A DNA stretch of 64,000 nucleotides, taken from an uncultured Spirochaetaceae bacterium. Its GTDB lineage: Bacteria; Myxococcota_A; UBA9160; UBA4427. Both the position numbers and the translations under genes were made by a program. This document shows, one piece after another, positions 16,160-51,599 of this stretch (position 1 is the first letter of the stretch; each line of letters begins with the position of its first letter). The stretch spans positions 16,526 to 80,525 of the forward strand of contig CAYYSY010000172.1 of NCBI GenBank assembly GCA_964474355.1, written 5' to 3'. The notes beneath the pieces are model-generated. The model saw only the letters and a program-made list of their open reading frames with translations, had not been told where the DNA came from and did no database searches.

Positions 16160-16304
16160 GCACACACGCCGGTTTCGTGAGGAGCGCCGTCGCCCCCGCT
16201 CCCACGTTCTTCGGGACGATTGCCATCGACGCTGCGCCCACGCATTTGGTGACGAACGTCCTCGACGTCCCCGACCGGGGCGTGCGACCATCGCCGGTGT
16301 GAGC
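16103..16304. repeat. diverged duplicate of the nusB 3' end, offset 143 bp
   Basis: 16103-16161 versus 16246-16304: 44 of 59 nt identical by hand alignment. FVNGILDAIAQGVRPAPA* versus LVTNVLDVPDRGVRPSPV*. Weaker similarity continues further upstream. Confidence 0.8.
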
Positions 16305-16925
16305 GCACGGCTCTCGATCGAAATCGACTCGCGTCCGTTCGAGCGCGTGGACGCAGACGTCGCCGTTGCAGGCCTCTTCGAGGACGACCGGCCGCTGCGA
16401 GGTGGTGCGGCGCGCGCCGATTGGCGCCTCTGTGGGCTGCTCTCCCGCCTGATCGTCGACGAGCGCATCTCGGGCGCACCGGGGGATGCCGTGCTCGTGC
16501 CCTCGGACTCGAGGCTGCGCGCGCCGCGGGTCCTGGTCCTCGGGCTCGGACCGCGCGGCAAGCGCTCGCTCGCCCAGGTGCAGGATCTCGTACGGGATGC
16601 GGCCGACCGTGTGATCGGGCTGGGGCTCACGAAGATGGCCCTCGGGCCGATGGGCTTCGCCGGCGACGACTGGCCGCGCCACGCCGACGCGGTGGTCGGC
16701 GCCGGGCTCGAGGCCGTGAGCGCGGCCGACCGTCCGCTCGAGCTCAGCCTCGTGGTTCCGGGTGCCGCCGAGGCGCGCGCCCGCGCGAGCTTCGGCGCCG
16801 TGATCGACGCCCTCGGTCGTCCGTCGATCGAGCTCGTCCGCCGGGACGACCGCAGGGCCGCCGATGGCCCCGCGCGTCGCCGCAAGACCCCCCAGGGGTC
16901 GCCGCCGCTCCATCGATCCCCCTAG
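16299..16925 (+). CDS. hypothetical protein with peptidase-M17-N-terminal-like (macro-like) domain
   Basis: DADVAVAGLFEDD...RVLVLGLGPRGK pattern resembles the leucyl-aminopeptidase N-domain; no catalytic domain is present. The GTG start at 16299 was chosen from the junction structure and is uncertain. Confidence 0.55.
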   Translation: MSARLSIEIDSRPFERVDADVAVAGLFEDDRPLRGGAARADWRLCGLLSRLIVDERISGAPGDAVLVPSDSRLRAPRVLVLGLGPRGKRSLAQVQDLVRDAADRVIGLGLTKMALGPMGFAGDDWPRHADAVVGAGLEAVSAADRPLELSLVVPGAAEARARASFGAVIDALGRPSIELVRRDDRRAADGPARRRKTPQGSPPLHRSP

Positions 16926-17068
16926 AACCGATCGCCGATCTCCCTCCCGACCGCCTCCGTTGCGCGAGGTCTTCAAGTCGAGCTGCCTATGGCCGATGGG
17001 TTGATTCAGGCACCGGCCGGCGTCGGCGGCGTTTCTTTGCCGTCGTGCGTGTGCGTCACGGGGGGACA

Positions 17069-19186
17069 ATGAGCCTGGTCGGCAATCTCGAGGATCTCAG
17101 CCTCGGCGACATCCTCCAGATCATCAGTCTGTCGCAGAAGTCCGGCGTGCTCTCCGTCCAGACGGGTGGGGGTGAGGGCCGCATTGTCTTCGTGGGTGGA
17201 CTCGTGCGCGGCGCGGCCGTCGAAGGGGGCGCCCGCGATCTGAAGAGCGTGCTGGTCCAGGGCGGGTTCCTCGACGAGGCGGGCTGGACAGCCGCTGCGG
17301 CGCAGGCCGCCTCGGAGGGCACCCCCATCGGCGCCGCCATCGACGCGACGACCGACCTCACCGCCGAGCGCATCGACTCGCTGTGCCGAGAGGCCGTCGA
17401 GTCGGCGGTCGTCACCATGTTCACGTGGCAGAAGGGCGACTTCAGCTTCGACGTCCGCACCGAGCCTGCCGAGGGCGATCCCGACCTGCTGCTCCCGATG
17501 GGCATGAACGCCCAGTACCTCGCCATGGAAGCCGCGCGCATGCGCGACGAGACCAGCTCGGACGATCTGGCCGATGCGGCGCCCGCGCCGACGGCGAAGG
17601 CCGAGTCGGCGAACGAGAGCACGGCCTCGCCCGCTACGGACGTGAGCGCCTTCGATGCGATGAGCGCGGAAGAGATGTTCGGGGTGGTCCCGGGTGACGC
17701 GGACGACGCTGCGGGCGACGGAGACACCCGGCATCTCGAGGCGGCGCCCGTCCACGAAGAACTCCCGCCGGTTACCGGCGAAGACCTGATCACGGCGGCA
17801 GACGCGCTCGCGCGCGCGACGCTCGAGCGCGTCGAGGCCGCACTCGGCGACGACGATGCGCCGGACTTCGTCGGTGATCTCTCGAAGCCGGGCCCCGACG
17901 ACACCCAGGACTTCGACATCACCGAGTTCGACGAGTCGGAGGGCGCGGGGCAATCGTCCCCGACCGAGCCGATCGCCGACGCCGATCTGATCGAGTTCTC
18001 CGAGGCCGACGTCATCGAGCCCGAGCCCTTGCCGGAAGGCGCCGCCGCAGTCGACCCCTTCGCGGTGCACGACGACGTGAAGCTCGCGGGCGACGAGCTC
18101 GAGCTCGACGGCCCCGAGCTCGAGGTCGATCGACCGCCTGCTGCTCAGGGTGGCGACGAGGAGTCCGCACCGAGCCAGACCGCGGCGACCGACTGGACGA
18201 AGCTCGGCGCGCGCCCCGTCGTCGTCGTCGACGAGTCGCTGTCGGCCCTCGAATGGGTGAAGGAGCACCTGCGGGAGCGCTTCTCCCAGGTCCACATCTT
18301 CCAGCGCAGCGACCAGGGGCTCGCGCGGATCCGTCAGTACCTCGTGCGTGGCTCGGCGCCGATCCTGCTCGTGGCGCCGGACATCCGGGTCGATCATCTG
18401 TCCGGCCTGCGCAATCCGCGCGACTTCGTCGACCGGCTGAAGGCGCAATCGCGCCGGATCGACGCCGTCTGGCTCGTGTCCGAGGACGCCGACGCCGTGG
18501 ATGCGGCTCAGCGAAAGGGCGCCTCGCTGCGTCGGCCGAGCGACGATCGCATGCGCTGCGCCGTCGGCAGCGACGAGCTCGACGCCGAAGGGCTCGCCCT
18601 CGGTGACCGTCTCGGCGAGATCCTGACGGTCGCGTCGACGGCGGCAGATGGAGGCGAAGGCGCCCCTGCGCGCGGCTCGTCTGCAACGCTGGCGCGACTG
18701 CGCGACACGACGCGGCAGCTCGGCGACGCGTCGAGCGGCGGCGAGATCCTGCCGCTGGTCATTCGCTTCGCGAGCGAGATCTTCTCGCGGGTCGCGATGT
18801 TCATGGTGCGAGACGACATCGCGACGGGCCTGGGGCAGGTCGGCCTCGACCGCTGCGGCGGGCCGGACGACGACGCCTTCCGGAAGGTGCGGATCCAGGT
18901 CTCGACCACCGGCTGGATGCGGGAGGTCGTCGAGACCCGATCGTCGGTCGACGGTGCGCCCGCGGATCCGGGCGACCGCGAGCTCGCCGGCGCGCTCGGC
19001 GACCGTGTCCCCGAGGTCGCCTACTGCGCGCCCATCGAGAGCGCCGGCCAGGTCGTGGCACTGCTCTACGGCGACAATCTGCCCGATTCCAGCCCGACCG
19101 GGGACACCAGCGCCCTGGAGGTCGTGCTGCACCACGCCGGGCTGGCCCTCGACCGGGCCGCCCTCGAGCGCGCGCTGCAGGAGTAG
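17069..19186 (+). CDS. DUF4388 (PatA-N-like) domain protein with acidic linker, receiver-like segment and C-terminal GAF-like domain
   Basis: MSLVGNLEDLSLGDILQIISLSQKSGVL (DUF4388 signature). A D/E-rich linker of about 230 aa. VVVVDES...LLVAPDI receiver-like segment. C-terminal ...VAMFMVRDD...QVVALLYGDN GAF-like domain. ATG at 17069 lies inside the longer ORF-track frame. Confidence 0.75.
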   Translation: MSLVGNLEDLSLGDILQIISLSQKSGVLSVQTGGGEGRIVFVGGLVRGAAVEGGARDLKSVLVQGGFLDEAGWTAAAAQAASEGTPIGAAIDATTDLTAERIDSLCREAVESAVVTMFTWQKGDFSFDVRTEPAEGDPDLLLPMGMNAQYLAMEAARMRDETSSDDLADAAPAPTAKAESANESTASPATDVSAFDAMSAEEMFGVVPGDADDAAGDGDTRHLEAAPVHEELPPVTGEDLITAADALARATLERVEAALGDDDAPDFVGDLSKPGPDDTQDFDITEFDESEGAGQSSPTEPIADADLIEFSEADVIEPEPLPEGAAAVDPFAVHDDVKLAGDELELDGPELEVDRPPAAQGGDEESAPSQTAATDWTKLGARPVVVVDESLSALEWVKEHLRERFSQVHIFQRSDQGLARIRQYLVRGSAPILLVAPDIRVDHLSGLRNPRDFVDRLKAQSRRIDAVWLVSEDADAVDAAQRKGASLRRPSDDRMRCAVGSDELDAEGLALGDRLGEILTVASTAADGGEGAPARGSSATLARLRDTTRQLGDASSGGEILPLVIRFASEIFSRVAMFMVRDDIATGLGQVGLDRCGGPDDDAFRKVRIQVSTTGWMREVVETRSSVDGAPADPGDRELAGALGDRVPEVAYCAPIESAGQVVALLYGDNLPDSSPTGDTSALEVVLHHAGLALDRAALERALQE

Positions 19187-19362
19187 CGCCCGGCCTCGAT
19201 CCGAGGGGGCGCGCCCACATCGGGCAACACCTGATAGACGCCTCCAGAGACCCGCGAAACACCCGCGGGCGGCCGACCGAAGTGCCCCGGTTACCTCAAG
19301 AAAGACCGATCCGGGCCGATACGACAGAGGGTCCAGTACGCCAACCCGCCGGGGAGAGGGCC

Positions 19363-19749
19363 GTGCAGCGCATCCTGATCGTCGAAGATTCAGCGACCAT
19401 GCGGTCGTTGCTGGTGTCTTGCCTCGAAGAGCTAGGCGAGCCGGTGAAGATCACCGAAGCCTCGAGTGGATTCGAAGCGCTTCGCTATCTGCCGCGCGAC
19501 GAGTTCGACCTCGTGGTGACCGACATCAACATGCCGGACATCAACGGTCTCGAGCTCGTGTCGTTCGTCAAGAACAACGAGAAGTACCAGGGTATTCCGC
19601 TGGTGATCGTTTCGACCGAGGGGTCGGACCGCGATCGGGACAAGGGCCTCGAGCTCGGTGCCGACGCGTATCTGGTCAAGCCCTTCGAGCCCGAGCTCCT
19701 GCGACAGACCGTGCGTGATCTGCTCGCCGGCTCGCGCGACGCGGGGTAG
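19363..19749 (+). CDS. cheY: CheY-like single-domain response regulator
   Basis: ILIVEDSATMR...DLVVTDINMPDING...GADAYLVKPF. GTG at 19363 with a GGGGAGAGGG RBS. An in-frame GTG at 19282 is also possible. Confidence 0.9.
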   Translation: MQRILIVEDSATMRSLLVSCLEELGEPVKITEASSGFEALRYLPRDEFDLVVTDINMPDINGLELVSFVKNNEKYQGIPLVIVSTEGSDRDRDKGLELGADAYLVKPFEPELLRQTVRDLLAGSRDAG

Positions 19750-19753
19750 AACC

Positions 19754-21961
19754 GTGGCCGCGCGCAAGTCGAGGGCGAAGCCGGCCAAGGCGGTCGCCAA
19801 GAAGGCGGGGCGCGCCAAGGCGTCGGCCCGCAAGCGCACGTCGTCCGCCGGTCCGGGTGGCGACGGCAAGGCGTATCGCGAGTTCGTCTCCGAAGCAGAG
19901 GAGATCCTCGAGCGCATGCGCGAGGACCTCGCCGATCTCTACGATCAGCGCGACTCGCGAGACGAGGTCGAGCCCGATCTCGTGAACCGTATCTTCCGCA
20001 GCGCCCACTCGCTGAAGGGGCTCGCGGGCATGTTCGGGCTCGACGGCATCGGCGAGATCGCGCATCACCTCGAAGACATCCTCGATGGGCTCCGCCTCGG
20101 ACGCATTCACACCGACGCTCCGGCCATCGATCTGCTGGACGAGGCCACGGCGCTCATCGCGGTCCTGATGGGGCAGCTCGAGGGTCCGAGCTCGGGAGAG
20201 ACCCCGGAGAGCCTCGAAGCAGTGGCGGCGCTCGTCGCTCGGATCGATGGCGCGGTCGAAGAGGAGCCCGAGGGCGACGACGAGCTCGCGGGTCTCGATC
20301 TCGACCCCTCGCTGCTGCGTGCCCTCACCGAGTACGAGGAGCACCGGCTGCGCGAGAACGTGCGGCGCGGCCGGCACGTCTCGCTCGTCGGCGCGACCTT
20401 CGAGATCATCGCGTTCGAGGAGGGCCTCTCCGAGCTCTCCGCAGCGGTGCGCGAGGTCGGCGAGGTGGTGTCGACCCTGCCCTCGCCGGGCGACGCGCCC
20501 GAGAGCCAGATCCGGTTCTCGCTGCTGGTCGCCACGGACGTCAGCGCCGACCAGCTCGCCGAACGACTCGACATCTCGGATGCGAGCGTGCGCGCGGTGA
20601 AGCAGGGCGACGCGCCCGAGCCCGAAGCCGAGCCTCCGGTTGCGGCTGAGAGCGAGCCGGCCCCGGCCGAGGCCGCGCCCGCTGCGAGTGCGCCGGACGC
20701 CGCGCCCGCGCCGCCCAGCGCGGCGATCGAGGGCGATCGCGAGAATGCCGAGATCGAGTCGCTGCGTTCGATCAGCGACACGGTCCGCGTCGACATCCGC
20801 AAGCTCGACGAGCTGATGAATCTCGTCGGCGAGCTGATCGTGCAGCGCAACGCCATCGCCAACGTGGCGGGCAACCTCATGGCCGACCCGGCCACGATGC
20901 GCACCGGCGCCGAGCTCGCCAAGACCAACAAGCTGCTCGACCGCAAGCTGAAGGAGCTGCAGGCCGGCGTGCTCGACGTGCGCATGGTGCCGCTGCGGCA
21001 GATCTTCGAGAAGCTGTCGCGGGTCGTGCGCCGGCTCCGCCGCGATCACGAGAAGAATGTGACGCTCAATTTCAAGGGCGCCGACACCGAGCTCGACAAG
21101 CTGATCGTCGAGCAGCTCGTCGATCCGCTGATGCACGTGGTGCGCAATGCCTTCGACCACGCCGTCGAGTCGGCCGACGAGCGGCTCGCTACCGGCAAGC
21201 AGTCCGAGTGCGAGATCTTGATCCAGGCCTTCCAGCGTGGGAATCACGTGGTGATCGAGGTGGTCGACGACGGCCGCGGCATCGATCCCGAGCGGGTGCG
21301 CGCGAAGGCTGAAGAGCGCGGGCTCGTGGCGGCCGATCAGGTGCTCACCGCGAAGGAGACGCTCGACCTCGTCTTCGCACCGGGCCTCTCGACGCGTGAA
21401 GAGGTGAGCGAGCTCTCCGGACGCGGCGTCGGCATGGACGTCGTCCGCCAGAACCTCGCCGACCTCGGCGGCATGGTGGAGCTCGAATCGACGTTCGGTG
21501 TGGGCACGACGGTCACGATGACGCTGCCGATCACCCTGGCGATCATCCAGGCGTTGATCGTGGGGGTCGGCGAGGAGCGCTTCGCGATTCCGCTCAACAG
21601 CGTGCTCGAGACGCTGCTCGTCGAGGAGTCGGAGATCCAGGCGAGCGAGGGCCGCCGCATGCTGAACCTGCGCGGTGACGCGCTGCAGCTGCGACCCCTG
21701 GCCGACGAGTTCGAGCTGTTCAGCATTCGCGACGACGGCAAGCAATACGTCGTCGTGCTCGGCATGGGCGATCAACGCCTCGGCCTGGTCGTGGACCAGC
21801 TCCACGGCCAGCAGGACACGGTCATCAAGCCGATCAAGGGCCCGATCCGCAACATCCCGGGCATCGCCGGCGCCACCGAGCTGGGTGATCAGAGCGCGAT
21901 CCTCGTTCTCGACGTGTCGCATCTCGTCAACGAGGCGGCGAGACGGAGGGAGGTCGCGTGA
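19754..21961 (+). CDS. cheA: chemotaxis histidine kinase CheA (HPt-dimerization-HATPase-CheW-like; no P2 or receiver domain seen)
   Basis: HPt motif FRSAHSLKGLAGMFG. H-box-less dimerization region. N/G1/G2 boxes (NAFDHAVE, DDGRGID, GRGVGMDVV). C-terminal CheW-like domain. GTG start 5 nt after the cheY stop. Confidence 0.95.
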   Translation: MAARKSRAKPAKAVAKKAGRAKASARKRTSSAGPGGDGKAYREFVSEAEEILERMREDLADLYDQRDSRDEVEPDLVNRIFRSAHSLKGLAGMFGLDGIGEIAHHLEDILDGLRLGRIHTDAPAIDLLDEATALIAVLMGQLEGPSSGETPESLEAVAALVARIDGAVEEEPEGDDELAGLDLDPSLLRALTEYEEHRLRENVRRGRHVSLVGATFEIIAFEEGLSELSAAVREVGEVVSTLPSPGDAPESQIRFSLLVATDVSADQLAERLDISDASVRAVKQGDAPEPEAEPPVAAESEPAPAEAAPAASAPDAAPAPPSAAIEGDRENAEIESLRSISDTVRVDIRKLDELMNLVGELIVQRNAIANVAGNLMADPATMRTGAELAKTNKLLDRKLKELQAGVLDVRMVPLRQIFEKLSRVVRRLRRDHEKNVTLNFKGADTELDKLIVEQLVDPLMHVVRNAFDHAVESADERLATGKQSECEILIQAFQRGNHVVIEVVDDGRGIDPERVRAKAEERGLVAADQVLTAKETLDLVFAPGLSTREEVSELSGRGVGMDVVRQNLADLGGMVELESTFGVGTTVTMTLPITLAIIQALIVGVGEERFAIPLNSVLETLLVEESEIQASEGRRMLNLRGDALQLRPLADEFELFSIRDDGKQYVVVLGMGDQRLGLVVDQLHGQQDTVIKPIKGPIRNIPGIAGATELGDQSAILVLDVSHLVNEAARRREVA

Positions 21962-22470
21962 GCGAGTCGACTGACGTCGGAGGTGATTGGGAGGATCTCG
22001 CCCGGACCGCCTCGGTGAGGCACGGCGGAGAGGACGACGGCGGGGCGTTGATGCTGCGCGAGCTGCTCTCGTTCGAGCTCGCCGGGTCGCCTTACGCGAT
22101 TCCGGTGGAACGCGTCCGCGAGATCGTGCGGGTGCGCGAGCTGACGCACGTGCCGCGCGTGCCCGATTGGGTGCGTGGCATCGTCACCCTGCGCGGTGAG
22201 GTGGTGCAGGTGATCGACCTGCGGATGCGACTCGGTCTTCGCGCCGACGATACGAACCGGCGCAGTCGGATCATCGTGCTCCATGGCGACGACGATCGCG
22301 TCACCGGCGTGCTCGTGGACTCGGTGCGCGAGGTGCTGCGCGTCGAGGAAGAATCGTTTTCACCGTCGATGGACTCGGAGTTGGGCGCCGTCGCGGAGCT
22401 CTGTCTCCGCGACGAGGAGTTCGTCTCGGTCATCGACGTCGACAGGGTATTGGACCTCCGTGCCGACTGA
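21958..22470 (+). CDS. cheW: CheW coupling protein 1
   Basis: LLSFELAGSPYAIPVERVREIV...VRGIVTLRGEVVQVIDLR. GTGA overlap with cheA. Confidence 0.9.
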   Translation: MSESTDVGGDWEDLARTASVRHGGEDDGGALMLRELLSFELAGSPYAIPVERVREIVRVRELTHVPRVPDWVRGIVTLRGEVVQVIDLRMRLGLRADDTNRRSRIIVLHGDDDRVTGVLVDSVREVLRVEEESFSPSMDSELGAVAELCLRDEEFVSVIDVDRVLDLRAD

Positions 22471-22581
22471 TTCGGATACGGGGATGGCAACACTCCGCGT
22501 CGACTGACGCGGACACGGGGATGGCAACACTCCGCGTCGACTGACGCGGACACGGGGATGAAGCGAGTTCGTGCAGACTGA
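22464..22581. repeat. 3 x 37-bp tandem repeat of the cheW1-stop / cheW2-start junction
   Basis: Units 22464-22500, 22501-22537 and 22538-22574, followed by the start of a fourth (gacTGA, to 22581). Each unit has the form cgacTGA..ggacacggggATG...... Confidence 0.9.
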
Positions 22582-23068
22582 AGCCGCACAGACCTTCGTG
22601 GGCGAGAACCAGGTCAATCTCGCCTGCTTCGAGACGGAAGGGCGCCTCTATGCCCTCGACGTGTCGCAGGTGCGCGAGATCGTCCGCTCCCAGGCGGTCA
22701 CGCCGCTCCCGATGGCACCCTCGCTGATCGAGGGCGTCGTCGACCTGCGCGGCGCGGTGATCCCGGTGCTCGATCTCGCGCGCGTGCTCGGCGGCACGCC
22801 GCCCGAGGAGACGGCGCAGTCGCGGATCGTGGTACTCGACTGTGACGGCCTCGTGCTCGGTCTCTTCGTCGCTTCGGCGACGGACGTGCTCTCGGTCGAT
22901 GCATCCCGTCTCGAGGACGTCCCGGAGCTCGCCAGCCAGGCCGGGTATGACGCCGTCCGTCACGTCGTGCGCCGCCCCGGCGCAGCCCCAGTCATGGTCC
23001 TTTCGCTCGAGCACATTCTCGAGAACGTCTACAAGTCGGCGATCGCAGGCCCCGAGGAATCGCGATGA
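22571..23068 (+). CDS. cheW: CheW coupling protein 2
   Basis: LACFETEGRLYALDVSQVREIV...IEGVVDLRGAVIPVLDL. The GTG start lies inside the third repeat unit. Confidence 0.85.
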   Translation: MQTEAAQTFVGENQVNLACFETEGRLYALDVSQVREIVRSQAVTPLPMAPSLIEGVVDLRGAVIPVLDLARVLGGTPPEETAQSRIVVLDCDGLVLGLFVASATDVLSVDASRLEDVPELASQAGYDAVRHVVRRPGAAPVMVLSLEHILENVYKSAIAGPEESR

Positions 23069-25644
23069 ACCCCGAATCCCTACCGACGTCCACCGAGCTT
23101 CGCGGGAAGCTGAGACGCGTAGATCAGATGGTGGCGCTGCCTGCGCTCGTGCTCATCTGGACGTATGTCGCTTCGGCCGTGGACTTCCGGCCCGGCGAGC
23201 TCGTCCCGATGTTCGTGACTCTGGGCATCTACGCCGCCGGCACCGTGTTGATGATGGAGTGGCTGCGCGGTCGCCAGTTCGTGGCGCTGGGTCGGGTCCT
23301 CGATGCGCGTGACGAAGCGCCGCTCACACACGACGAGCTCGCCGCCGGCTTCGCCACGGCCGTCTCGCTGCCTGCTACGGCCGCGAAGACCGTCGCGCTC
23401 GTGTGGCTCGCGCCGGGGATCGTGGTGCCCCTGGTGCTGGCTGCGATCGGGCACACCTCGTGGATCGGGTTCGAGCGCTGGAGCGTGCTGCTGGTCGCCG
23501 TGGTCTGCGGTGCGATGGTCTCCGTCGGCTTCCTCTTCTTCCTCGCCAAGAGTGCCCTCGAGCCGGTGCGCGAGGCGGTCGGCCTGCGAATCGAGGACAG
23601 CGACGAGCGCGAGCGCGCCGTGAAGCCGCTTCCGATGGCGACGAAGGTGCAGTTCGTCGTGCTCGGCGCCGTGCTGACGACCCTGTTGCTGACGGTCTCG
23701 CTCGCCTGGTCCCGTTCGACCGTGGCGGTCGATGCCCAGGCGATGGAGTGGCAGCAGCGCGTGCTCTCGGCGCTCGCGACGAAGATGCGCTCGGCCACGT
23801 TCAGCGAGGCGCGGCTCGACGTGCTGCCTCTCGATGCGATCCTGCCCCACGACGTCGATCTGGTCGTCCTCGACCAGGGCGACGATGCCAGCGCCGTCAG
23901 GCTCGGCAGAGACCGCGAGCCCGCCGATCTCCGCTCCGTGTCGGATGCGCCGGAGCAGGTGGGCCAATCGTCCGCGCTCGTCACCGGTTATGTCACCAGC
24001 TGGAAGCGTCTGCCCGACGGACGCGTCCTCGTGGCGGCGATCGACCGCGCTGATCTCCAGCTCGGCTTCGGGGCCTTCGGCTCGGTGCTCGGCCTGCTCA
24101 CGCTGCTGACGAGCGGCGTCGCCGTCGCGCTCGCGTGGCTGCTCTCGCGGGACATCCGCCGGGCGGCGGAGGTGCTGCAGGCGGAGGCCGACCGGCTCGC
24201 GTCCGGCGACCTGCGCCGGGGTCGGGTCTGGGAGGCGGAGGACGAGATGGGCGGCCTCGGCCGCGCCTTCGAGCGCATGGGCGCGTCGCTCCGCAAGACC
24301 GTGGGCGGCGTGGCGCATACCGCCGACCGCGTCGAGGCTGCGGTGGCCGACATCTCCGCCGTGTCGCGCAGCGTCGCGGTCGCGAGCGCCGATCAGGTGC
24401 GTCGCATCCAGCAGGCCAGCGATCTCATGCTCGAGATCAACCAGCAGGTGCGCGGCGTCTCCGACAGCGCCCAGGCGCTGAACCTCTCCGTCGAGGAGTC
24501 GAGCAGCTCGATCCTCGAGCTCGGCGCCGCGGGCGACGAGCTGAACGACACCGCCACCGTGCTCTCGGGCAAGGTCGACGAGGTGTCGGGATCGATCGAG
24601 CAGATGGTCCGCAGCGTGAAGGAGGTCGGCTCGACCAGCGAGCAGCTCTCCGACGCGGCGGCCGAGACGTCCTCGAGCATGGAGGAGATGGCGAGCTCGA
24701 TGCGCGCAGTGGACACCACCGCCGAGGCGACCGCCAGCCTCTCGAACGACGTGGTGTCGCTCGCCGAGCGCGGCCAGCAGCGCGTCAGCCAGACGATGAG
24801 CGGCATGGAGGCGATTCGCGACGCGACGGACGCGGCCGAGAAGGTGATTCGCGGCCTGGGCGCCCGGACCAACGAGATCGGTGGCATCCTCGATGTGATC
24901 GACGACGTCGCCGACGAGACGAATCTGCTCGCGCTGAACGCCGCCATCATCTCGGCACAGGCCGGTGAGCACGGCCGCGCCTTCTCGGTGGTGGCCGACG
25001 AGATCAAGGAGCTCGCCGACCGGGTCCTCGCGTCGACCAAGGAGATCGGCTCGCTGATCCGCAATGTGCAGGAGGAGAGCGAGGCCGCGGTCGGAGCGAT
25101 CGAGGCCGGCAGCCAGAGCGTGGCCGGTGGCGTCGAGCTCTCGGCCGAGGCGGGCAGCTCCCTCGAAGAGATCACGCGTGCGTCTCGCGAGAGCGGCACG
25201 CGCATCGGAGAGATCGTCTCGGCCGTGCGCGAGCAGACGAAGGCCACGGGTCACGTGGTCTCGCTCATGGAGGCGGTGCGCGAGGGCGTCGACCACATCT
25301 CTCTCGCGCGCACAGAGCAGGACGGCGCCAACGAGGTCGTCTATCGCTCGTCGGTCACGATGCAGGAGGTCGCCCAGCAGGTGCGGCGCACCACCGAGGA
25401 GCAGTCGCGCGGCTTCGGCCGGATCCGCGAGAGCATCGAGGGGGTGCGCGAGGCGGTCGAGCAGATCAACGGGTCGCTGCGCGACCAGTCGAGCGCGTGT
25501 GCCCAGGTGGCCGAGTTCCTCGAGCAGGTGGCCGACGGCACCCGCTCGAACGAGGATGCCGCCCAGCGCATGGGTGACTCGATGCGCGTCATGATGGAGC
25601 AGGCGGAGGCGCTCCGTGCGGACCTCGAGGAGTTCCGCCTCTAG
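23065..25644 (+). CDS. mcp: methyl-accepting chemotaxis protein with multi-pass N-terminal membrane domain and HAMP
   Basis: About 6 hydrophobic helices, then HAMP (...LASGDLRRG...), then the highly conserved hairpin ETNLLALNAAIISAQAGEHGRAFSVVADEIKELA. ATGA overlap with cheW2. Confidence 0.95.
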   Translation: MNPESLPTSTELRGKLRRVDQMVALPALVLIWTYVASAVDFRPGELVPMFVTLGIYAAGTVLMMEWLRGRQFVALGRVLDARDEAPLTHDELAAGFATAVSLPATAAKTVALVWLAPGIVVPLVLAAIGHTSWIGFERWSVLLVAVVCGAMVSVGFLFFLAKSALEPVREAVGLRIEDSDERERAVKPLPMATKVQFVVLGAVLTTLLLTVSLAWSRSTVAVDAQAMEWQQRVLSALATKMRSATFSEARLDVLPLDAILPHDVDLVVLDQGDDASAVRLGRDREPADLRSVSDAPEQVGQSSALVTGYVTSWKRLPDGRVLVAAIDRADLQLGFGAFGSVLGLLTLLTSGVAVALAWLLSRDIRRAAEVLQAEADRLASGDLRRGRVWEAEDEMGGLGRAFERMGASLRKTVGGVAHTADRVEAAVADISAVSRSVAVASADQVRRIQQASDLMLEINQQVRGVSDSAQALNLSVEESSSSILELGAAGDELNDTATVLSGKVDEVSGSIEQMVRSVKEVGSTSEQLSDAAAETSSSMEEMASSMRAVDTTAEATASLSNDVVSLAERGQQRVSQTMSGMEAIRDATDAAEKVIRGLGARTNEIGGILDVIDDVADETNLLALNAAIISAQAGEHGRAFSVVADEIKELADRVLASTKEIGSLIRNVQEESEAAVGAIEAGSQSVAGGVELSAEAGSSLEEITRASRESGTRIGEIVSAVREQTKATGHVVSLMEAVREGVDHISLARTEQDGANEVVYRSSVTMQEVAQQVRRTTEEQSRGFGRIRESIEGVREAVEQINGSLRDQSSACAQVAEFLEQVADGTRSNEDAAQRMGDSMRVMMEQAEALRADLEEFRL

Positions 25645-25709
25645 CGCGAGCAGGCGGATTCGAATGCGGGGCCGGACGTCGTCCGGCCTGGATGCGGAAG
25701 GAAGTGAAG

Positions 25710-26714
25710 ATGATTGCAGCGTGCCCGAAGTGCGGAGCCAAGTACCGGGTCGACGAATCCAAGATCGGGGCCGAAGGCGCGCGTCTGCGCTGCGCCAAGT
25801 GCCAGGCCGTCTTCCGGGTGCGCGCGCCCCAGGCCGCGGCTCCCGTGGCAGCCGATCCGGTCGTGGCAGAGACCCCCGCCCCGCCGCCCGTGGCCGAGGC
25901 TCCGGCCGCGGCACCGCCCCAGGCCGAGGCCGCGGCGCCCCAGGCGGCGGCTCCTGCGACCTCGTCCGACGAGATCGAGATCGACCGTGAGCGCTGCGTG
26001 CTCATCGCCGACCCCGACGAGGCCGCCGGCAAGACCACCGCGAGCGCGGTCGCGAGCTGGGGCCTGCAGCCGCTGCTCGTGCACGATGGCGTCGAGGCGA
26101 TGATGACGATCCAGCGCGAGCTGCCCTCCGCCGTGGTGCTCGACGCGGCGCTCCCGAAGATGTTCGGCTTCCAGATCTGCGAGGTGATGAAGCGCAACGA
26201 GAGCCTGAGCGGCATCAGGGTCGTGCTCGTCGGCGCGATCCACAACGAGGAGCGCTATCGCCGGCCGCCGTCCGAGATGTATGGGGCCGACGTCTACCTC
26301 GAGCAGCCCGACCTGCCCGACGGCCTGAAGCCGCTGCTGCAGCAGTTCGGTCTGCCGGTGGACGGTGCGCCCGCGACGGCCCCCGTGTCGTCGATGCCGG
26401 AGCCCGCGGCCGCACCGGTAGCCGCGGCCGCGGCGCCTGCGGCCGCGCCGGAGCCCGCCGCCGACCCGGCGCTCGCCGAAGAGCGCGAGAAGGCCGAGCG
26501 GCTCGCGCGCATCATCGTGTCGGACATCGTCCTCTATCAGGGCGAGAAGTTCGATCAGGCCATCGCGGCTGGCAACGTGCTGGAGTCGCTCGATAGTGAA
26601 GTCGAGGAGGGGCGCAAGCTCTTCCGCCAGCGCATCGACGAACGGGTACGTGACGAGCGCGACCATCTGACGGACGAGCTCCTGCGCGTGGCCCGGGAGC
26701 GAGGCATGCAATGA
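25710..26714 (+). CDS. MJ0042-type zinc-ribbon + receiver (REC) domain protein with conserved C-terminal helical domain
   Basis: MIAACPKCGAKYRV...LRCAKCQAVFRV zinc ribbon. Pro/Ala linker. REC-like CVLIADPDE...VVLDAALPKMFG...VVLVGA. Start at 25710 with a GGAAGGAAG RBS. Confidence 0.75.
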   Translation: MIAACPKCGAKYRVDESKIGAEGARLRCAKCQAVFRVRAPQAAAPVAADPVVAETPAPPPVAEAPAAAPPQAEAAAPQAAAPATSSDEIEIDRERCVLIADPDEAAGKTTASAVASWGLQPLLVHDGVEAMMTIQRELPSAVVLDAALPKMFGFQICEVMKRNESLSGIRVVLVGAIHNEERYRRPPSEMYGADVYLEQPDLPDGLKPLLQQFGLPVDGAPATAPVSSMPEPAAAPVAAAAAPAAAPEPAADPALAEEREKAERLARIIVSDIVLYQGEKFDQAIAAGNVLESLDSEVEEGRKLFRQRIDERVRDERDHLTDELLRVARERGMQ

Positions 26715-28810
26715 GCGTCGAAGCGAACGATCGCGAACGACAGATCATCCACCACGACCTCGGCAGCCCCGACGAGGAGGTGCGCCGGCTCGCCGTCGAG
26801 CGCGTCGCCTGTCTCGGCGTCGACGAGGCGCTGCCGCCGCTGCTCGATGCGCTCGGCGATGGATCATGGCGCGTGCGCAAGGCCGCCGTGGCACGGCTCG
26901 TCGCCATCGAGGCGGCCGACCACGTCGAGCGCGCACTGATCGAGGCGCTGGCCGACGGCGAGAATCCCGGCCGCCGCAACTCCGCGTTCGAGGCGCTGGT
27001 GTCGATGGGGCCGCGGGTCGTGCCCACTTTGATCGACCACCTCGACTCCGACGACGTCGACGTCCGCAAGCTCATCGTCGACGCCCTCGCGGGCATCGGT
27101 GACGTCGTCGCGACGCCCACCCTGATCGGGCGACTGAGAGACGACGACCCGAACGTGCGCGCAGCCAGCGCCGACGCGCTCGGCGTCGTCGGTGGACCGG
27201 GCGCCGGCGAGGCGATGACGCGCTCGGCGATCGACGACACGGAGGACACGCTCGTCCGGCTGTCGGCCTTCCGCGGCCTGGCGCGTATCGAGCACGCCGT
27301 GAACGTCGGCGATCTCGATTCGGCCCTCGAGGACTCCCTGCTGCGGCCGGCGGTCTTCGGGCTGCTCGGCGAGGTCGGTGGGAGCGACGCCATCGGCTGT
27401 CTGATCGACGGCCTGGGCCTCCCGTCCCGATCGTGCCGGGAGGCGGCGATCGGCGCACTGCTCAAGATGCTCGACCGCGGCGAAGGCGAGGCGCGACTCG
27501 CGCTCGCGTCGCGAATCATCGATGGCGGTCGAAGCCAGGCGGGGCTGATCGAGGCCTGCACCGATCGGCTCCCGGACGCCGATCTGGCGACCCGAATCGT
27601 GCTGATCCAGTTCCTCGGTCTCGTAGGAGATCCATGCTCGGTCGTCCCGATCCTCGAGGCAGGACGTGACGAGGCCATGGAAGAGGTCGCGCAGTCGACG
27701 CTCGTCGACTGGGGCGACGACGCGCTCATCGCGCTCGAGAATGAATGGGATCGCCTCGACCCCGATCTGCGCGGGGCTGCGTGCACGCTGATCGGCCGGG
27801 TCGGTGGTGAGCGTGCGCCGCTGCTGCTCCGCTCGGCGATCGAAGACGCGGATGCATCGCTGCGTGCCGCAGCGGCGCGTGCCATCGGCGATTGTCACTG
27901 CGCCGAGCTGATGCCGCTGCTCGTCGAGCGGCTGGAGAGCGCGGCCCTCGACTGCGACGACGACACCGATGAGGAGCCCGCAGCGATCGTATCCGCTCTC
28001 GTCGAGCTCGCTCGCTGGGATGCCGACGCCGACGCCGGCCTGGTGCCGGACATGGTGTCCCTGCTGGCCGAGCGGCTCGAGACCGCGGAGGACGAGGGGC
28101 GCGTGGCCGTCGCCACCGTGCTCGGTCGGGTCGGTCGAGCCGAGGACGAGGAGCTGATCGTCCACCTGCTGAAGGACCCCGACCCACAGGTACGCCGCAG
28201 CGCGGTGGGCGCGCTCGCGCGTCTCGAGCCCGGTGCGGCCTCGGAGCCGTTGCGTCTGGCACTCGCCGACGAGTCGGCCATGGTGCGGCTCGCCGCGGCG
28301 ACCGCGCTCGGCGAGGCGATGAATACGCAGGTGATCGACGACCTGCACCGGCTGATCCACGACGACGATGCGCGCGTGCGCTCGGCTGCGGTGCGCGGCA
28401 TCGGCCAGCACGCCGACCGGGAGCATCTCGCGCCCGAGCGAGCCGTGTCGCTGATCGAGAACGTGCTTTTGGGCGATGCCATGGTGGCGCTCGCTGCCGT
28501 CGACGCGCTCGCCGCAATCGGTGGCTCCCACGCCGCGGAGGCCGCGCTCAAGGTCCTCGAACGCGACGAGCCCGAGCTGGTGCAGTCGGCCGTTGCGTGC
28601 ATCGGCCGTCACGGCGACTCGGAGACCGTGGCCGAGCTGCTGCCGATCGTCGCGCACGAGAGCTGGCTGGTGCGGAGCGAAGCGATCCAGACGATGGCCG
28701 ACAGGCGCGTGGTGCAGGCGGTGCCCGCGATCCTGCGCCGACTCGAGACCGAGCAGGATTCGTTCGTGCGCGACACGATCCTGCGTGCCCTCAAGAGCCT
28801 GGAGGACTGA
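26711..28810 (+). CDS. HEAT-repeat (PBS-lyase-like) protein, about 18 repeats
   Basis: A reiterated D..VR..A..ALG pattern runs through all 699 aa (DEEVRRLAVERVACLG, SWRVRKAAVARL, DVDVRKLIVDALAGIG, DPNVRAASADALG ...). ATGA overlap with the upstream gene. Confidence 0.85.
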   Translation: MSVEANDRERQIIHHDLGSPDEEVRRLAVERVACLGVDEALPPLLDALGDGSWRVRKAAVARLVAIEAADHVERALIEALADGENPGRRNSAFEALVSMGPRVVPTLIDHLDSDDVDVRKLIVDALAGIGDVVATPTLIGRLRDDDPNVRAASADALGVVGGPGAGEAMTRSAIDDTEDTLVRLSAFRGLARIEHAVNVGDLDSALEDSLLRPAVFGLLGEVGGSDAIGCLIDGLGLPSRSCREAAIGALLKMLDRGEGEARLALASRIIDGGRSQAGLIEACTDRLPDADLATRIVLIQFLGLVGDPCSVVPILEAGRDEAMEEVAQSTLVDWGDDALIALENEWDRLDPDLRGAACTLIGRVGGERAPLLLRSAIEDADASLRAAAARAIGDCHCAELMPLLVERLESAALDCDDDTDEEPAAIVSALVELARWDADADAGLVPDMVSLLAERLETAEDEGRVAVATVLGRVGRAEDEELIVHLLKDPDPQVRRSAVGALARLEPGAASEPLRLALADESAMVRLAAATALGEAMNTQVIDDLHRLIHDDDARVRSAAVRGIGQHADREHLAPERAVSLIENVLLGDAMVALAAVDALAAIGGSHAAEAALKVLERDEPELVQSAVACIGRHGDSETVAELLPIVAHESWLVRSEAIQTMADRRVVQAVPAILRRLETEQDSFVRDTILRALKSLED

Positions 28811-29745
28811 TGCTCGAGGGCGGCGCCGCAGGCCTGACCATGACCGACGCCGAGTTCCGCATGTTCTGCGAACTCATCAAGTCGCGTTGTGGGCTGCACT
28901 TCGACGAGGACTCCCGGTTCATCGTCGAGAAGCGCCTCGCGCGCCGCGTGCAGGAGTGCGGCGTGGGCAGCTTCGCCGGCTATCACCTGCTGCTTCGGGA
29001 CGGCTCCGCCGGTGACGAGGAGTTCTCGAACGTCGTCGACACGCTCACGACCAACGAGACGTACTTCTTCCGCGAGCTCGGGCAGATACGTGCCCTCCTG
29101 GACGAGATCATCCCCGATCTGGTCCTGCGCCGGCGAGCCGCGGGCATCGAATCGCCGATCGGCATCTGGTCGGCCGGCTGCTCGAGCGGCGAGGAGCCCT
29201 ACTCGATCGTCATCCTCGCGAAGGAGGCGGGCCTGGACGTCGGTCGCGACATCCGCGTCTATGCGTCGGACATCTCGAAGTCGATGCTCCACCGCTCGCG
29301 CAGGGGCATCTACCGCGAGGCTTCCTTCCGCGAGACGAGCCCGTACATCCGTGACAAGTATTTCGACACGAAGGACGGCCAGACGCGGATCTCCGACGAC
29401 GTGAAGGACCATGTCGACTTGATTCACCTGAATCTGCTCGATCGAGACAAGATCGCGCTGCTCGGCACGATGGACGTGATCCTCTGCCGCAACGTGATCA
29501 TCTACTTCGATCTCGAGACGAAGCAGCGCGTCATCGATACGTTCCACGACAAGCTCAAGCCCGGAGGCTATCTGCTGCTCGGTCACTCCGAGTCGCTCAT
29601 CAACGTGTCGAGCGCGTTCGAGCTGAAGCACCTGACCCGCGACCTCGTCTACCGGCGCCCCGTGCCCGGCGAAGAGCGCGAGGATCCGTGGCACACGATC
29701 GCCGGCGGTACGGCGGCCAGCCTCGCACCGGGGAAGGGCCGCTGA
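28810..29745 (+). CDS. cheR: chemotaxis protein methyltransferase
   Basis: TTNETYFFRE, IWSAGCSSGEEPYS, CRNVIIYF. TGATG overlap with the HEAT gene. Confidence 0.9.
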   Translation: MLEGGAAGLTMTDAEFRMFCELIKSRCGLHFDEDSRFIVEKRLARRVQECGVGSFAGYHLLLRDGSAGDEEFSNVVDTLTTNETYFFRELGQIRALLDEIIPDLVLRRRAAGIESPIGIWSAGCSSGEEPYSIVILAKEAGLDVGRDIRVYASDISKSMLHRSRRGIYREASFRETSPYIRDKYFDTKDGQTRISDDVKDHVDLIHLNLLDRDKIALLGTMDVILCRNVIIYFDLETKQRVIDTFHDKLKPGGYLLLGHSESLINVSSAFELKHLTRDLVYRRPVPGEEREDPWHTIAGGTAASLAPGKGR

Positions 29746-30830
29746 TGGATCATCGAAACCTGATTCGCGTGCTCGTGATCGACGACTCGGCGTTCAGCCG
29801 GCAGGCGATCACCCGGATGCTGAGCACCTCGCCGCTCGTCGAGGTGGTCGGCGTGGCCCGCGACGGCGAGGAGGCGATCCACAAGACCCTCGACCTCGAG
29901 CCCGATCTGATCACCCTCGATCTCGAGATGCCCCGCATGGACGGCTTCACGTTCCTGCGGCTCATCATGTCCAAGCGGCCGACGCCGGTGATGGTGATCA
30001 GCGGCCGATCGGGCGAGGACGACGTCTTCAAGGCGCTCGATCTGGGCGCGGTGGACTTCATCGCGAAGCCGACGCCGCACGCGACACCGGAGCTCCAGAC
30101 GATCCACCAGGAGCTGATTCGCAAGGTCCACGCGATTCGCGAGCTGCGCATCGACAAGGTCAAGGACCGCATTCGCAAGGCGCCCCCGGTGCTCTCGCGG
30201 CGCCACCGCACGGTGGCCTCGGTACCGCCCGTCGTCGTGATCGGGTCGTCGACCGGTGGCCCCGCCGCGCTGATGCAGACCTTCGGCGCATTCACCGAGG
30301 CGCCGCCATGTGCGTTCCTCGTCGCCCAGCACATGCCCGAGGGCTTCACCCGCGGCTTCGCCGAGCGCCTCGATCGACTCACACCGTTTTCGGTGAAGGA
30401 GGCGAGCGGTGGCGAGGAGCCCGAGCGCGGCACGGTGCTGATCGCGCCCGGCGGTCGTCACCTCGAGCTCGACGCCGAGCGTGGCCGGATCATCTCGCGG
30501 GTCTACCAGAGCCAGCCGAGCGACAAATACACGCCGTCGGTGGACCGTCTCTTCGAGTCGGCCGCCAAGCACTTCGCGAGCGATCTGCTCGCAGTCGTGC
30601 TGACCGGCATGGGCGACGATGGACGTCAGGGAGCGTTGGCGGTGCGTGAATCAGGCGGGACGGTGATTGCGGAGTCGGAGGAGACGGCAGTGATCTACGG
30701 CATGCCCCAGCAGGTCGTGCGAGCCGGCGCGGCGAATCGCGTACTGCCACTGAACGAGATTCCGACGGCGATCCAATCTGGTGTTGCGCGAGAAACGCAG
30801 CGAGCCGGTATGGGGAGGGATTCCCGATGA
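29745..30830 (+). CDS. cheB: chemotaxis response regulator protein-glutamate methylesterase
   Basis: REC (VLVIDDSAFSR...LDLEMPRMDG) plus esterase (VVVIGSSTGGPAAL, HMPEGFT, GMGDDG). Confidence 0.95.
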   Translation: MDHRNLIRVLVIDDSAFSRQAITRMLSTSPLVEVVGVARDGEEAIHKTLDLEPDLITLDLEMPRMDGFTFLRLIMSKRPTPVMVISGRSGEDDVFKALDLGAVDFIAKPTPHATPELQTIHQELIRKVHAIRELRIDKVKDRIRKAPPVLSRRHRTVASVPPVVVIGSSTGGPAALMQTFGAFTEAPPCAFLVAQHMPEGFTRGFAERLDRLTPFSVKEASGGEEPERGTVLIAPGGRHLELDAERGRIISRVYQSQPSDKYTPSVDRLFESAAKHFASDLLAVVLTGMGDDGRQGALAVRESGGTVIAESEETAVIYGMPQQVVRAGAANRVLPLNEIPTAIQSGVARETQRAGMGRDSR

Positions 30831-31660
30831 GCAACGGGGGACGGAACCCGCACGATCGAGGGGAAGCGGTCCTCGCGATCTTCAAGCGCGGCGCCGACTT
30901 CATGAAGCAGCTCATGGACGAGAACGAGGGGCTGCGGAAGCAGCTCGCGGACGTCCATGGGCGGCAGGAGACCGCGTCCCAGTCGGACAGCGAGTGGGAT
31001 GCCCTGCGCGTGGAGTTGGCGGAGAAGATCGAGAACCTGGAAAGCGAGCGTGAGAACATCATGGCTCAGCTGCGCTCGGTGGAGTCGGAGAACCAGCAGT
31101 TCGCCGAGCGCTACCTCGAGATCGAAGAGGAAAACAACAACCTGGCCAACCTCTACGTGGCCAGCTACCAGCTGCACTCGACCCTCGACCCGAGCGAAGT
31201 GCTGAAGGTCATCGTCGAGATCGTGATCAACCTGATCGGTGCGGAGCTCTTCTGCGTGTACGTGTGTGAGGAGGAGGTCGGCATGCTGAAGCCGGTGGCG
31301 AGCGAAGGCTCGCCGGTTTCGTCCTTCCCGCCGATCCCCCTGGATTCGGGGGCCGTCGGTGAGGCCGTGCAGAGCGGTGACGTGTTCACGGACGATCCGA
31401 ACCTGGAGCACGGGGAGGGTGCGGACGCCATCGGCGAGCCCGTCGTCTGCATCCCGCTGCGCGTCGACGAGAAGCCGGTGGGCGCGATCGTGATCCACAG
31501 GCTGCTGCAGCAGAAGGACGGCTTCTCGCCGCTGGACCACGAGCTCTTCACGCTCATGGCGGGTCACGCGGCGACGGCGATCTTCGCATCGCAGCTCTAC
31601 GCACAGTCCGAGCGCAAGTTGAACACGATTCAGGGATTCATCGATCTGCTGACCAAGTAG
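30827..31660 (+). CDS. coiled-coil + GAF domain protein
   Basis: N-terminal heptad-rich region (LRKQLADV...IENLESERENIMAQLRSVESENQQFAERYLEIEEENNNLANLY), then a GAF-like domain (LKVIVEIVINLIGAELFCVYV...PVGAIVIHRLL). ATGA overlap with cheB. Confidence 0.8.
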   Translation: MSNGGRNPHDRGEAVLAIFKRGADFMKQLMDENEGLRKQLADVHGRQETASQSDSEWDALRVELAEKIENLESERENIMAQLRSVESENQQFAERYLEIEEENNNLANLYVASYQLHSTLDPSEVLKVIVEIVINLIGAELFCVYVCEEEVGMLKPVASEGSPVSSFPPIPLDSGAVGEAVQSGDVFTDDPNLEHGEGADAIGEPVVCIPLRVDEKPVGAIVIHRLLQQKDGFSPLDHELFTLMAGHAATAIFASQLYAQSERKLNTIQGFIDLLTK

Positions 31661-31716
31661 GGTCGAGACGGCTATCCGGGCGCGCCGCATGCGGCCCGGA
31701 CACAGCGAGTGAGGAG

Positions 31717-32100
31717 TTGGCCATGGCGGGACATCGCATTCTGATCGTCGAGGACAGCCCGACGATGCGACAGTTGCTGGTCTTCGCGCTCAAGCGAATG
31801 AAGGACGTCGACATCGTCGAGGCCCAGGATGGCATGGACGGTCTTCGAAAGGTGACGGGAGACGAGTTCGACCTCGCCTTCGTGGACATCAACATGCCCG
31901 TCATGGACGGACTCAAGCTGATCAGCCTGATCCGGGGCGAGGAGAACCTGGCCTCGATGCCGATCTGCGTGATCACGACCGAAGGCGCCAAGGAGGACCG
32001 CGAGCGAGCGCTCTCCCTCGGCGCCAACGAGTACCTGACGAAGCCGATCCAGGCGAACAAGGTCCTCGCGGTGGCGAAGAGTCTTCTCAAGATCGAGTAG
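31717..32100 (+). CDS. CheY-like single-domain response regulator (second copy)
   Basis: ILIVEDSPTMR...DLAFVDINMPVMDG...GANEYLTKP. Confidence 0.9.
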   Translation: MAMAGHRILIVEDSPTMRQLLVFALKRMKDVDIVEAQDGMDGLRKVTGDEFDLAFVDINMPVMDGLKLISLIRGEENLASMPICVITTEGAKEDRERALSLGANEYLTKPIQANKVLAVAKSLLKIE

Positions 32101-32128
32101 TGGCTCCGGGTTGGGCTAGTCTCCCGGG

Positions 32129-51559: not shown

Positions 51560-51599
51560 GACTACTTCGAGAGGCGAGAGCCAGAGAGGAGAGACGCCC

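Follow-up and report, generated by a model that had tools for sequence, protein, structure and literature searches.

A twelve-gene chemosensory cluster in an uncultured myxococcote and its relationship to the beta-group clusters

Gene content of the cluster

We analysed a chemosensory (che) gene cluster on a 64-kb stretch of DNA (hereafter the window) from an uncultured bacterium that is assigned in GTDB to Myxococcota_A. Genes in the window, which has a G+C content of ~70%, were called from a frame plot of third-position GC content (GC3) and the translations, followed by Pfam searches, and these gave 12 genes, all on the forward strand, that fill positions 17069–32100 exactly (Table 1). Six of the 11 junctions between them are overlaps of one or four bases (GTGA, ATGA and TGATG), and the widest intergenic gap in the cluster is 176 bp. 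A preliminary description, made from the sequence and its open reading frames, had reported the same overlaps and a 12-gene chemosensory cluster with non-canonical partners and a second CheY in last place, and the frame plot, the translations and Pfam all agree with it. A complete receptor–kinase–adaptation core is present, accompanied by a PATAN (DUF4388) protein, a zinc-ribbon–receiver protein, a HEAT-repeat protein and a coiled-coil GAF protein. As set out below, the cluster very probably belongs to the family of che clusters known as the beta group.

The kinase CheA has no receiver domain and gave no Pfam match to a P2 domain, and its NCBIfam matches were generic ones below the cut-off. 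Residues E12, D13, D57, Y106 and K109 of CheY1 are essentially invariant among 57 orthologues, and the catalytic residues of CheY2 are invariant or nearly so among 69. The chemoreceptor (MCP) contains about six hydrophobic segments, with a ~114-residue loop at positions 217–330. Its tip motif, EHGR, lies at residue 635, which is 224 residues beyond residue 411, just after the HAMP match, and 224 residues from the C terminus; each arm would therefore comprise 32 heptads, and the hairpin, by a residue count symmetric about the tip, is predicted to have 64 heptads, as in the 64H class of MiST. Alignment of the receptor with 40H and 44H receptors requires gaps of whole heptads. Sites resembling the methylation consensus occur at residues 537 and 720.

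The first gene of the cluster had been described as encoding a DUF4388/GAF protein. The DUF4388 domain was found by Pfam at residues 5–162 (E = 4e-24), but the GAF domain was not detected by Pfam in the window protein itself, and emerged only from its orthologues, 12 of 30 of which give a GAF_2 match, and from structure prediction. Alignment of the 30 orthologues revealed two conserved blocks besides the PATAN domain, and a profile of the orthologues found no match among PDB sequences. An AlphaFold model of residues 380–705, with a mean predicted local distance difference test score (pLDDT) of 89.8, has a flavodoxin-like fold of the receiver type, followed by a long helix and a GAF fold, so that the model adds, between PATAN and GAF, a receiver-like domain that the preliminary description had missed. 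The best Foldseek match of this model was a fragment of a REC-GAF dual sensor kinase (6oaq/6oap, E = 1e-10), followed by dozens of GAF domains, and the best GAF-only match was a cyclic AMP-bound GAF domain. In both the window protein and the consensus of 30–43 orthologues, Ala or Ser followed by Pro occupies the site of the phospho-acceptor Asp, and Lys109 is replaced by Arg. Because the receiver lacks the phospho-acceptor, we describe the protein as PATAN–pseudo-receiver–GAF. It shares the PATAN domain and the receiver fold with PatA-type (PATAN-REC) regulators but not their phosphorylatable receiver, whereas the Geobacter orthologue retains the canonical DD, D57 and K109.

The zinc-ribbon–receiver protein matches Pfam Zn_ribbon_4 (E = 7e-15) and TIGR02098 of NCBIfam, and gives a weak Response_reg match (31 bits). 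Its divergent receiver retains the equivalent of D57, in the motif VVLDAALP, but has Gly for T87 and Gln for K109; its C-terminal helical domain, to which no Pfam family matches, contains the motif ERLARIIVSDIVLYN, which is conserved in 76 sequences. Judged by these residues, the cluster encodes two phosphorylatable CheY proteins and, in the window lineage, degenerate receivers in the PATAN and zinc-ribbon proteins. The HEAT protein gave NblB-, CpcE- and CpcF-like matches, and an exact look-up of its sequence returned no record. The coiled-coil GAF protein has a filament-like coiled-coil match (Pfam) at residues 27–156. NCBIfam assigned none of the accessory proteins to a specific family, every match, including those of the HEAT protein, being under the cut-off.

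Table 1. Genes of the che cluster and other features of the window
Gene	Product or feature	Coordinates	Strand	Length (aa)	Pfam matches and junctions
g1	PATAN (DUF4388) – acidic variable linker – receiver-like pseudo-receiver – GAF	17069..19186	+	705	
g1, PATAN domain (approximate)		17081–17554			
g1, receiver-like domain (approximate)		18218–18553			
g1, GAF domain (approximate)		18677–19183			
cheY1	Single-domain response regulator	19363..19749	+	128	Response_reg, E 5e-27
cheA	Histidine kinase CheA	19754..21961	+	735	Hpt, dimerisation, HATPase, CheW-like
cheW-a	CheW	21958..22470	+	170	CheW, E 1e-33; GTGA overlap (4 bases) with cheA
cheW-b	CheW	22571..23068	+	165	CheW, E 6e-30; 100 bp after cheW-a
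mcp	Multi-pass membrane chemoreceptor	23065..25644	+	859	HAMP, residues 360–410; MCPsignal, residues 562–737
g7	MJ0042-type zinc ribbon – Pro/Ala linker – divergent receiver – C-terminal helical domain	25710..26714	+	334	
g8	HEAT-repeat (PBS-lyase-like) solenoid	26711..28810	+	699	HEAT_2, E 1e-65; HEAT_PBS; ATGA overlap with g7
cheR	Methyltransferase	28810..29745	+	311	CheR, E 9e-54; CheR_N; TGATG overlap
cheB	Methylesterase + receiver	29745..30830	+	361	CheB_methylest, E 5e-60; Response_reg, E 9e-24; TGATG overlap
g11	Coiled-coil + GAF	30827..31660	+	277	GAF_2, E 9e-14; ATGA overlap
cheY2	Single-domain response regulator	31723..32100	+	125	Response_reg, E 8e-28
	Type IV pilus block	1586–5918	+		
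	Peptidase_M17_N-like gene	~16137–16925	+		Peptidase_M17_N, E 9e-11
	TPR protein	33622–35742	+		
	Second DUF4388/PATAN protein	35855–37057	+		
	Kdo transferase and LpxK domains in one stop-to-stop frame	51300–54140	+	946 codons	Glycos_transf_N (Kdo transferase domain)

Distribution and identity of the cluster family

For the HEAT protein, at least 900 homologues were found at E ≤ 1e-10, and the best 120 listed are nearly all full length, at ~700 residues. A narrow pattern scan found its relatives encoded in 181 GTDB species genomes; the best 80 of these are all uncultured metagenome-assembled genomes (MAGs), nearly all annotated as Myxococcota or 'Deltaproteobacteria', with a minority labelled Spirochaetales, Opitutales or Geobacter sp. 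by their submitters. The closest relative among those listed (OZ252299.1) is 80% identical. Searching 1.84 billion cluster representatives brought up a second tier of relatives, also full length at ~670 residues and 28–38% identical, and none of the 30 HEAT-family representatives that we looked up by name is from a cultured myxobacterium.

Related Myxococcota loci were compared with the window proteins by tblastn, and order and strand were found to be unchanged nearly everywhere. Forty-three loci span the interval from the PATAN gene to holA, and in these the co-conservation of the genes was counted. Nine genes, encoding the PATAN protein, CheY1, CheA, both CheW proteins, the zinc-ribbon–receiver protein, the HEAT protein, CheR and CheY2, are present in all 43, followed by the MCP gene (41) and those of CheB and the coiled-coil GAF protein (40 each); 31 of the loci are fully collinear. 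The MCP gene may be at the window position, after cheY2, at both or absent, and in six spanning loci it, or a second, paralogous MCP gene, follows cheY2. Relative to the window proteins, median identity is 75% for CheY1, 69% for CheB, 63% for CheR, 60% for CheA, 59% for the coiled-coil GAF protein, 47% for both the HEAT protein and the MCP and 41% for the PATAN protein. The most conserved protein of the cluster, and by a wide margin of the region, is CheY2, with a median of 84%, compared with 55% for HolA; in the closest genome, that with the 80% identical HEAT protein, CheY2 is 100% identical.

Outside Myxococcota, two Geobacter-type loci (L083 and L086, the latter encoding the HEAT protein of Geobacter sp. 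AOG1) have the order der, PATAN-REC, CheY, CheA, AAA ATPase, CheW, REC, CheW, zinc-ribbon-REC, HEAT, CheR, CheB, GAF and CheY, and then leuS, lptE, holA and rpsT, with a cytochrome gene between the terminal CheY gene and leuS in L086. When the window proteins were compared with L086 by tblastn, 11 of the 12, all but the MCP, matched in the same order at 31–65% identity (HolA, 29%). The Geobacter-type CheA is 44% identical to that of the window over ~700 residues, and the CheY2 orthologue 65%. A Nitrospirota MAG with 40% G+C (GCA_049303235.1, L087) has nusB, M17_N and three unrelated genes, followed by PATAN-GAF, CheY, CheA, REC-GGDEF, CheW, CheW, zinc-ribbon-REC, HEAT, CheR, CheB, GAF and CheY. 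Its REC-GGDEF gene (6754–7719 of that locus) directly follows cheA, the site of the AAA ATPase gene in Geobacteraceae, and its cheW genes are adjacent, whereas the Geobacter-type loci have a third receiver gene between theirs. The coiled-coil GAF protein of the window is 49–50% identical to the product of the gene at the same position in the Geobacter-type and Nitrospirota clusters. The MCP gene does not lie within the clusters of these three loci.

Two minimal variants lack the PATAN, zinc-ribbon–receiver and GAF genes but retain HEAT: CheY-CheA-CheW-CheW-HEAT-CheR-CheB-CheY in a 'Deltaproteobacteria' MAG (L085) and CheY-CheA-CheW-HEAT-CheR-CheB in a Schekmanbacteria MAG (L088). HEAT is thus the only accessory in every cluster variant that we have seen. 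In the window lineage (15527–33584), the Nitrospirota MAG and the MAGs with the two minimal variants, the cluster is found downstream of nusB, and in Myxococcota and, with leuS, in Geobacter-type loci it is found upstream of lptE/holA/rpsT. This recurrence of chromosomal sites suggests very old vertical inheritance of the cluster. Because the two Geobacter-type loci and the Nitrospirota locus share their gene order, the accessory genes and the che core have been conserved together over a very deep divergence. The preliminary description had supposed a pathway distinct from flagellar chemotaxis, a view that would have suffered had the accessory genes not accompanied the core in relatives; the PATAN, zinc-ribbon–receiver and HEAT genes do so in every one of the spanning Myxococcota loci, as well as in Geobacteraceae and Nitrospirota, and the objection therefore does not arise.

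The beta group was defined by Tran et al. in 2008 for che clusters with homologues of cheA, cheW, cheR and cheB and without mcp, shared by the delta-proteobacteria Geobacter species, Stigmatella, Anaeromyxobacter, Plesiocystis and Myxococcus xanthus, and no function had then been assigned to it; preliminary data showed that knockouts of the Geobacter sulfurreducens cluster (cluster 5) alter the extracellular matrix (PMC2577667). The published order of the G. sulfurreducens genes is GSU2220 (CheW), GSU2221 (ATPase), GSU2222 (CheA), GSU2223 (CheY), GSU2224 (response regulator) and GSU2225 (EngA) (PMC5585712, PMC8242959), which is the order seen in our two Geobacter-type loci. EsnB (the CheW of GSU2220) and EsnC (the CheA of GSU2222) are needed for electrode colonization but not for Fe(III) oxide reduction; their partner MCP and diguanylate cyclase are encoded elsewhere, EsnD being the proposed cyclase partner and sharing the mutant phenotype of CheW and CheA (PMC5585712). 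A Tn5 insertion in GSU2224, beside the CheY and CheA genes, gave oxygen-tolerant strains with more aggregation or biofilm (PMC8242959). The window cluster, like the beta group, brings together homologues of cheA, cheW, cheR and cheB (by Pfam), and it agrees with the Geobacteraceae loci in the succession PATAN-REC-GAF, CheY, CheA, CheW, CheW, zinc-ribbon-REC, HEAT, CheR, CheB, GAF, CheY and in its setting upstream of lptE–holA–rpsT. We therefore assign it to the beta-group family with high confidence.

In M. xanthus, the published order of the Che8 genes (MXAN_4751–4759) is CheY8b-CheA8-CheW8b-CheW8a-[two unnamed genes]-CheR8-CheB8-CheY8a. Compared by published locus-tag order, Che8 resembles the window cluster in having two CheW proteins, a CheY at each end and a CheA without a receiver, and its two unnamed genes stand where the window has the zinc-ribbon–receiver and HEAT genes. 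It differs in having no MCP gene, being the only M. xanthus che cluster without one, and in that CheB8 and CheY8a are neighbours, whereas the window has the coiled-coil GAF gene at this place. CheA8 has been implicated, by a pull-down and a cheA8 deletion, in the phosphorylation of an orphan regulator; Che8 otherwise has no known function. We found no published description of MXAN_4754, 4755 or 4760 or of GSU2212–2217 in the literature searched.

A number of points weigh against this assignment and the interpretation that we build on it. The window cluster contains its own MCP gene, with a predicted 64-heptad hairpin, contrary to the definition of the beta group; it lacks the AAA ATPase gene that lies between cheA and cheW in cluster 5; and it has no GGDEF gene. 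The link to the G. sulfurreducens gene numbers is drawn from gene order and homology to Geobacteraceae other than strain PCA, and Che8 is probably a member of the family as judged by published gene order only. The relatives found for the window lineage are uncultured MAGs only. Moreover, the flanking housekeeping genes (nusB, holA and rpsT) are equally syntenic in the Myxococcota loci, and collinearity there is therefore weak evidence of functional coupling; we downgraded it from proof of coupling and moved the argument to the cross-phylum loci.

Further differences from the Geobacter versions are the absence of the third receiver gene, the pseudo-receiver without a phospho-acceptor Asp in the PATAN protein and the loss of Lys109 from the zinc-ribbon–receiver protein. 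The in-cluster 64-heptad MCP, the loss of the ATPase and third receiver genes and the loss of the phospho-acceptor from the PATAN protein are features of the window lineage. The cluster itself is of an already-known type, since it was noted in 2008 and has been partly studied genetically in Geobacter. What is apparently undescribed, as far as we searched the literature, is its occurrence in genomes of four phyla, its constant accessory set and its recurring chromosomal settings: three lineages have it downstream of nusB, and two have it upstream of lptE/holA/rpsT.

Chromosomal surroundings

Housekeeping genes occupy the remainder of the window. Upstream of the cluster lie gltX, yceD, fabD, fabF, glyA, ribD, ribH, nusB and a small Peptidase_M17_N-like gene, which is stand-alone and unannotated and is found between nusB and the PATAN gene. 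This small gene also precedes the PATAN gene in ~40 relatives, and we considered it as a thirteenth member of the cluster. It was rejected, as in the Nitrospirota locus it is beside nusB, with three unrelated genes before the cluster, and in the 'Deltaproteobacteria' minimal variant, which has no PATAN gene, it adjoins nusB. At ~11 kb upstream of the cluster is a type IV pilus block encoding an N_methyl pilin, an unknown protein, an ABC ATPase, an ABC-2 permease and an A24 prepilin peptidase (a pilin/PilGHI-like/PilD block). We take this arrangement to be like that of M. xanthus, pilA-pilG-pilH-pilI-pilD.

Downstream lie holA and rpsT, followed by genes for a TPR protein and a second PATAN protein, phoH, prfB, lolCDE-like genes, bamA, skp, lpx genes, remA, gmk and relA/spoT. 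The pair of genes encoding the TPR and second PATAN proteins is kept in L001 and L002, the two Myxococcota-type loci for which downstream genes were listed, and not in the Geobacter-type loci. The second PATAN protein gives a weak, below-cut-off match in NCBIfam to an MshE-related motif that binds cyclic di-GMP (c-di-GMP). The Kdo transferase and LpxK domains that share one frame belong either to a fusion or to two genes in the same frame.

Possible outputs of the pathway

The preliminary description summarized the cluster as an 'alternative cellular function' pathway of undefined output, and this is still its best summary. From the genomic context and the homologues, we consider a non-flagellar role to be highly probable. 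An ordinary flagellar chemotaxis operon, with flagellar genes elsewhere in the genome, would account for the complete core of CheA, CheW, CheY, CheR, CheB and MCP and for the canonical CheY residues, including Y106 and K109, but it seems to us a very remote prospect. M. xanthus is not known to have flagella, and the published order of its Che8 genes is the same. Pfam searches of essentially all strong open reading frames revealed no flagellar gene in the 64 kb of the window, as had already been noted. No CheZ, CheC, CheX, CheD or CheV is present, and mutants of the Geobacter cluster are reported to show defects in surface colonization (PMC5585712). A different comparison had been made with the M. 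xanthus Che7 system, and in a pathway of that type the binding of CheY to the HEAT protein would be the essential output, in a stress response or in development, with the other accessories peripheral. The HEAT partner bears out this resemblance. Che7, like the window cluster, encodes a PBS-lyase-like HEAT protein between mcp and cheR-cheB and has a CheA without a receiver, CheY7 binds the HEAT-repeat protein Cpc7 (PMC11514114), Che7 belongs to the phylogenetic group of Che8 and HEAT is the universal accessory of the clusters compared here. The resemblance ends there, because published tables give Che7 a single CheW and a single CheY, where the window has two of each, and a soluble Mcp7 that lacks HAMP, where the window has a membrane MCP with HAMP, no published Che7 component corresponds to the PATAN, zinc-ribbon–receiver or GAF protein, and the Che8 order is a better fit. 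Nor do the zinc-ribbon–receiver protein, the GAF proteins and the second CheW appear as additions to a Che7-like core, as had been proposed, since the same genes occur in Geobacteraceae and Nitrospirota; together with the HEAT protein and the second CheY, they are, from these comparisons, ancestral to a distinct, sister cluster family. The zinc-ribbon–receiver, coiled-coil GAF and PATAN proteins are conserved with the cluster across phyla and so are not peripheral, and we regard a Che7-type output as improbable.

If the cluster controlled type IV pili or cell polarity in the manner of the cyanobacterial Tax and Pix systems, its main output would be the PATAN protein, which would dock on the pilus motor. 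Those systems, like the window cluster, combine genes for a PATAN regulator and a plain CheY with genes for CheA, CheW and an MCP; the cyanobacterial PATAN-REC regulators bind the pilus motor (PilB1), which ties PATAN to the type IV pilus, and in the window the pilus block upstream and the second PATAN protein downstream also favour such a role. The window cluster differs in that its PATAN protein has a degenerate receiver followed by GAF, it includes HEAT, CheR and CheB, its CheA has no fused receiver and its MCP is not a photoreceptor. In addition, the minimal variants dispense with the PATAN gene, none of the loci examined has a pil gene beside the cluster, and, since the receiver has lost its phospho-acceptor in the window lineage, CheA could not drive the PATAN protein directly. 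Pilus control as the main output is, in our judgement, hardly likely. Chemosensory input to c-di-GMP or other cyclic-nucleotide signalling, with CheA acting on a diguanylate cyclase regulator encoded elsewhere and the GAF proteins sensing or relaying the nucleotide, also seems unlikely as a complete account. It draws on the REC-GGDEF gene directly after cheA in the Nitrospirota cluster, on EsnD of G. sulfurreducens, which shares the phenotype of CheW and CheA mutants (PMC5585712), and on the two GAF domains of the cluster, one of which has the cyclic AMP-bound domain as its best GAF-only structural match. No GGDEF, EAL or PilZ gene was found, however, in the window cluster or in those of the 80 Myxococcota relatives, and such input overlaps with the explanation that we favour rather than excluding it.

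On balance, we favour the view that the cluster represents, in Myxococcota, an old non-flagellar chemosensory pathway that has been inherited vertically and controls surface-associated behaviour. The multi-pass membrane receptor, with its 64-heptad hairpin, would assemble with CheA and the two CheW proteins and be adapted by methylation through CheR and CheB, and CheA would transfer phosphate to CheY1, CheY2 and CheB. Phospho-CheY, most likely that of CheY2, would then act by protein contact on the co-encoded HEAT solenoid rather than on a flagellar switch. We propose HEAT as the target of CheY because it is the sole accessory in every variant and because of the CheY7–Cpc7 precedent. A comparable case is the Halobacterium HEAT_PBS protein OE2401F, which interacts with CheY, CheD and CheC2 (PMC2666748). 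Like the HEAT protein of the window, OE2401F is encoded in a che region, and its binding to CheY is accompanied by a requirement for signalling output; it differs in being archaeal and in serving the archaellum, and the two have a common repeat type only, orthology being unsupported. The zinc-ribbon–receiver, PATAN–pseudo-receiver–GAF and coiled-coil GAF proteins would be lineage-variable adaptors, possibly coupling the pathway to cyclic-nucleotide signalling and to machinery of the cell pole or the type IV pilus, and the behaviour controlled would be associated with surfaces, such as matrix, biofilm, aggregation or pilus use. By analogy, the GAF proteins, the Nitrospirota REC-GGDEF protein and EsnD of Geobacter point to cyclic-nucleotide signalling, and the PATAN protein may be linked to pilus or polarity machinery in the way of the cyanobacterial PATAN regulators. 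We put forward these specific output steps as tentative. It is conceivable, but rather doubtful, that the HEAT, zinc-ribbon–receiver, PATAN–(REC)–GAF and coiled-coil GAF proteins make up a dedicated output module of an ancient chemosensory class, in which CheY phosphorylation, with CheY2 as the hub, is converted into surface behaviour via c-di-GMP, the pilus or both.

For the window itself, the outcome is mainly one of annotation, in that the cluster is a bona fide conserved operon, probably not for motility, of a type already in the literature. The wider interest lies in the family, because outputs are known for few non-flagellar chemosensory pathways. The family is large, with HEAT relatives in the 181 GTDB genomes, as well as in Geobacteraceae, Nitrospirota and Schekmanbacteria, and it has tractable carriers in G. 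sulfurreducens (Esn, electrode colonization) and probably M. xanthus (Che8). The comparison separates the parts that are always present (CheY, CheA, CheW, HEAT and CheR) from those that vary with lineage, and this constant set, together with the insertion of REC-GGDEF in one lineage, provides concrete, testable candidates for the output. If the proposed output module is real, it would be a new and widespread output mechanism for chemosensory systems.

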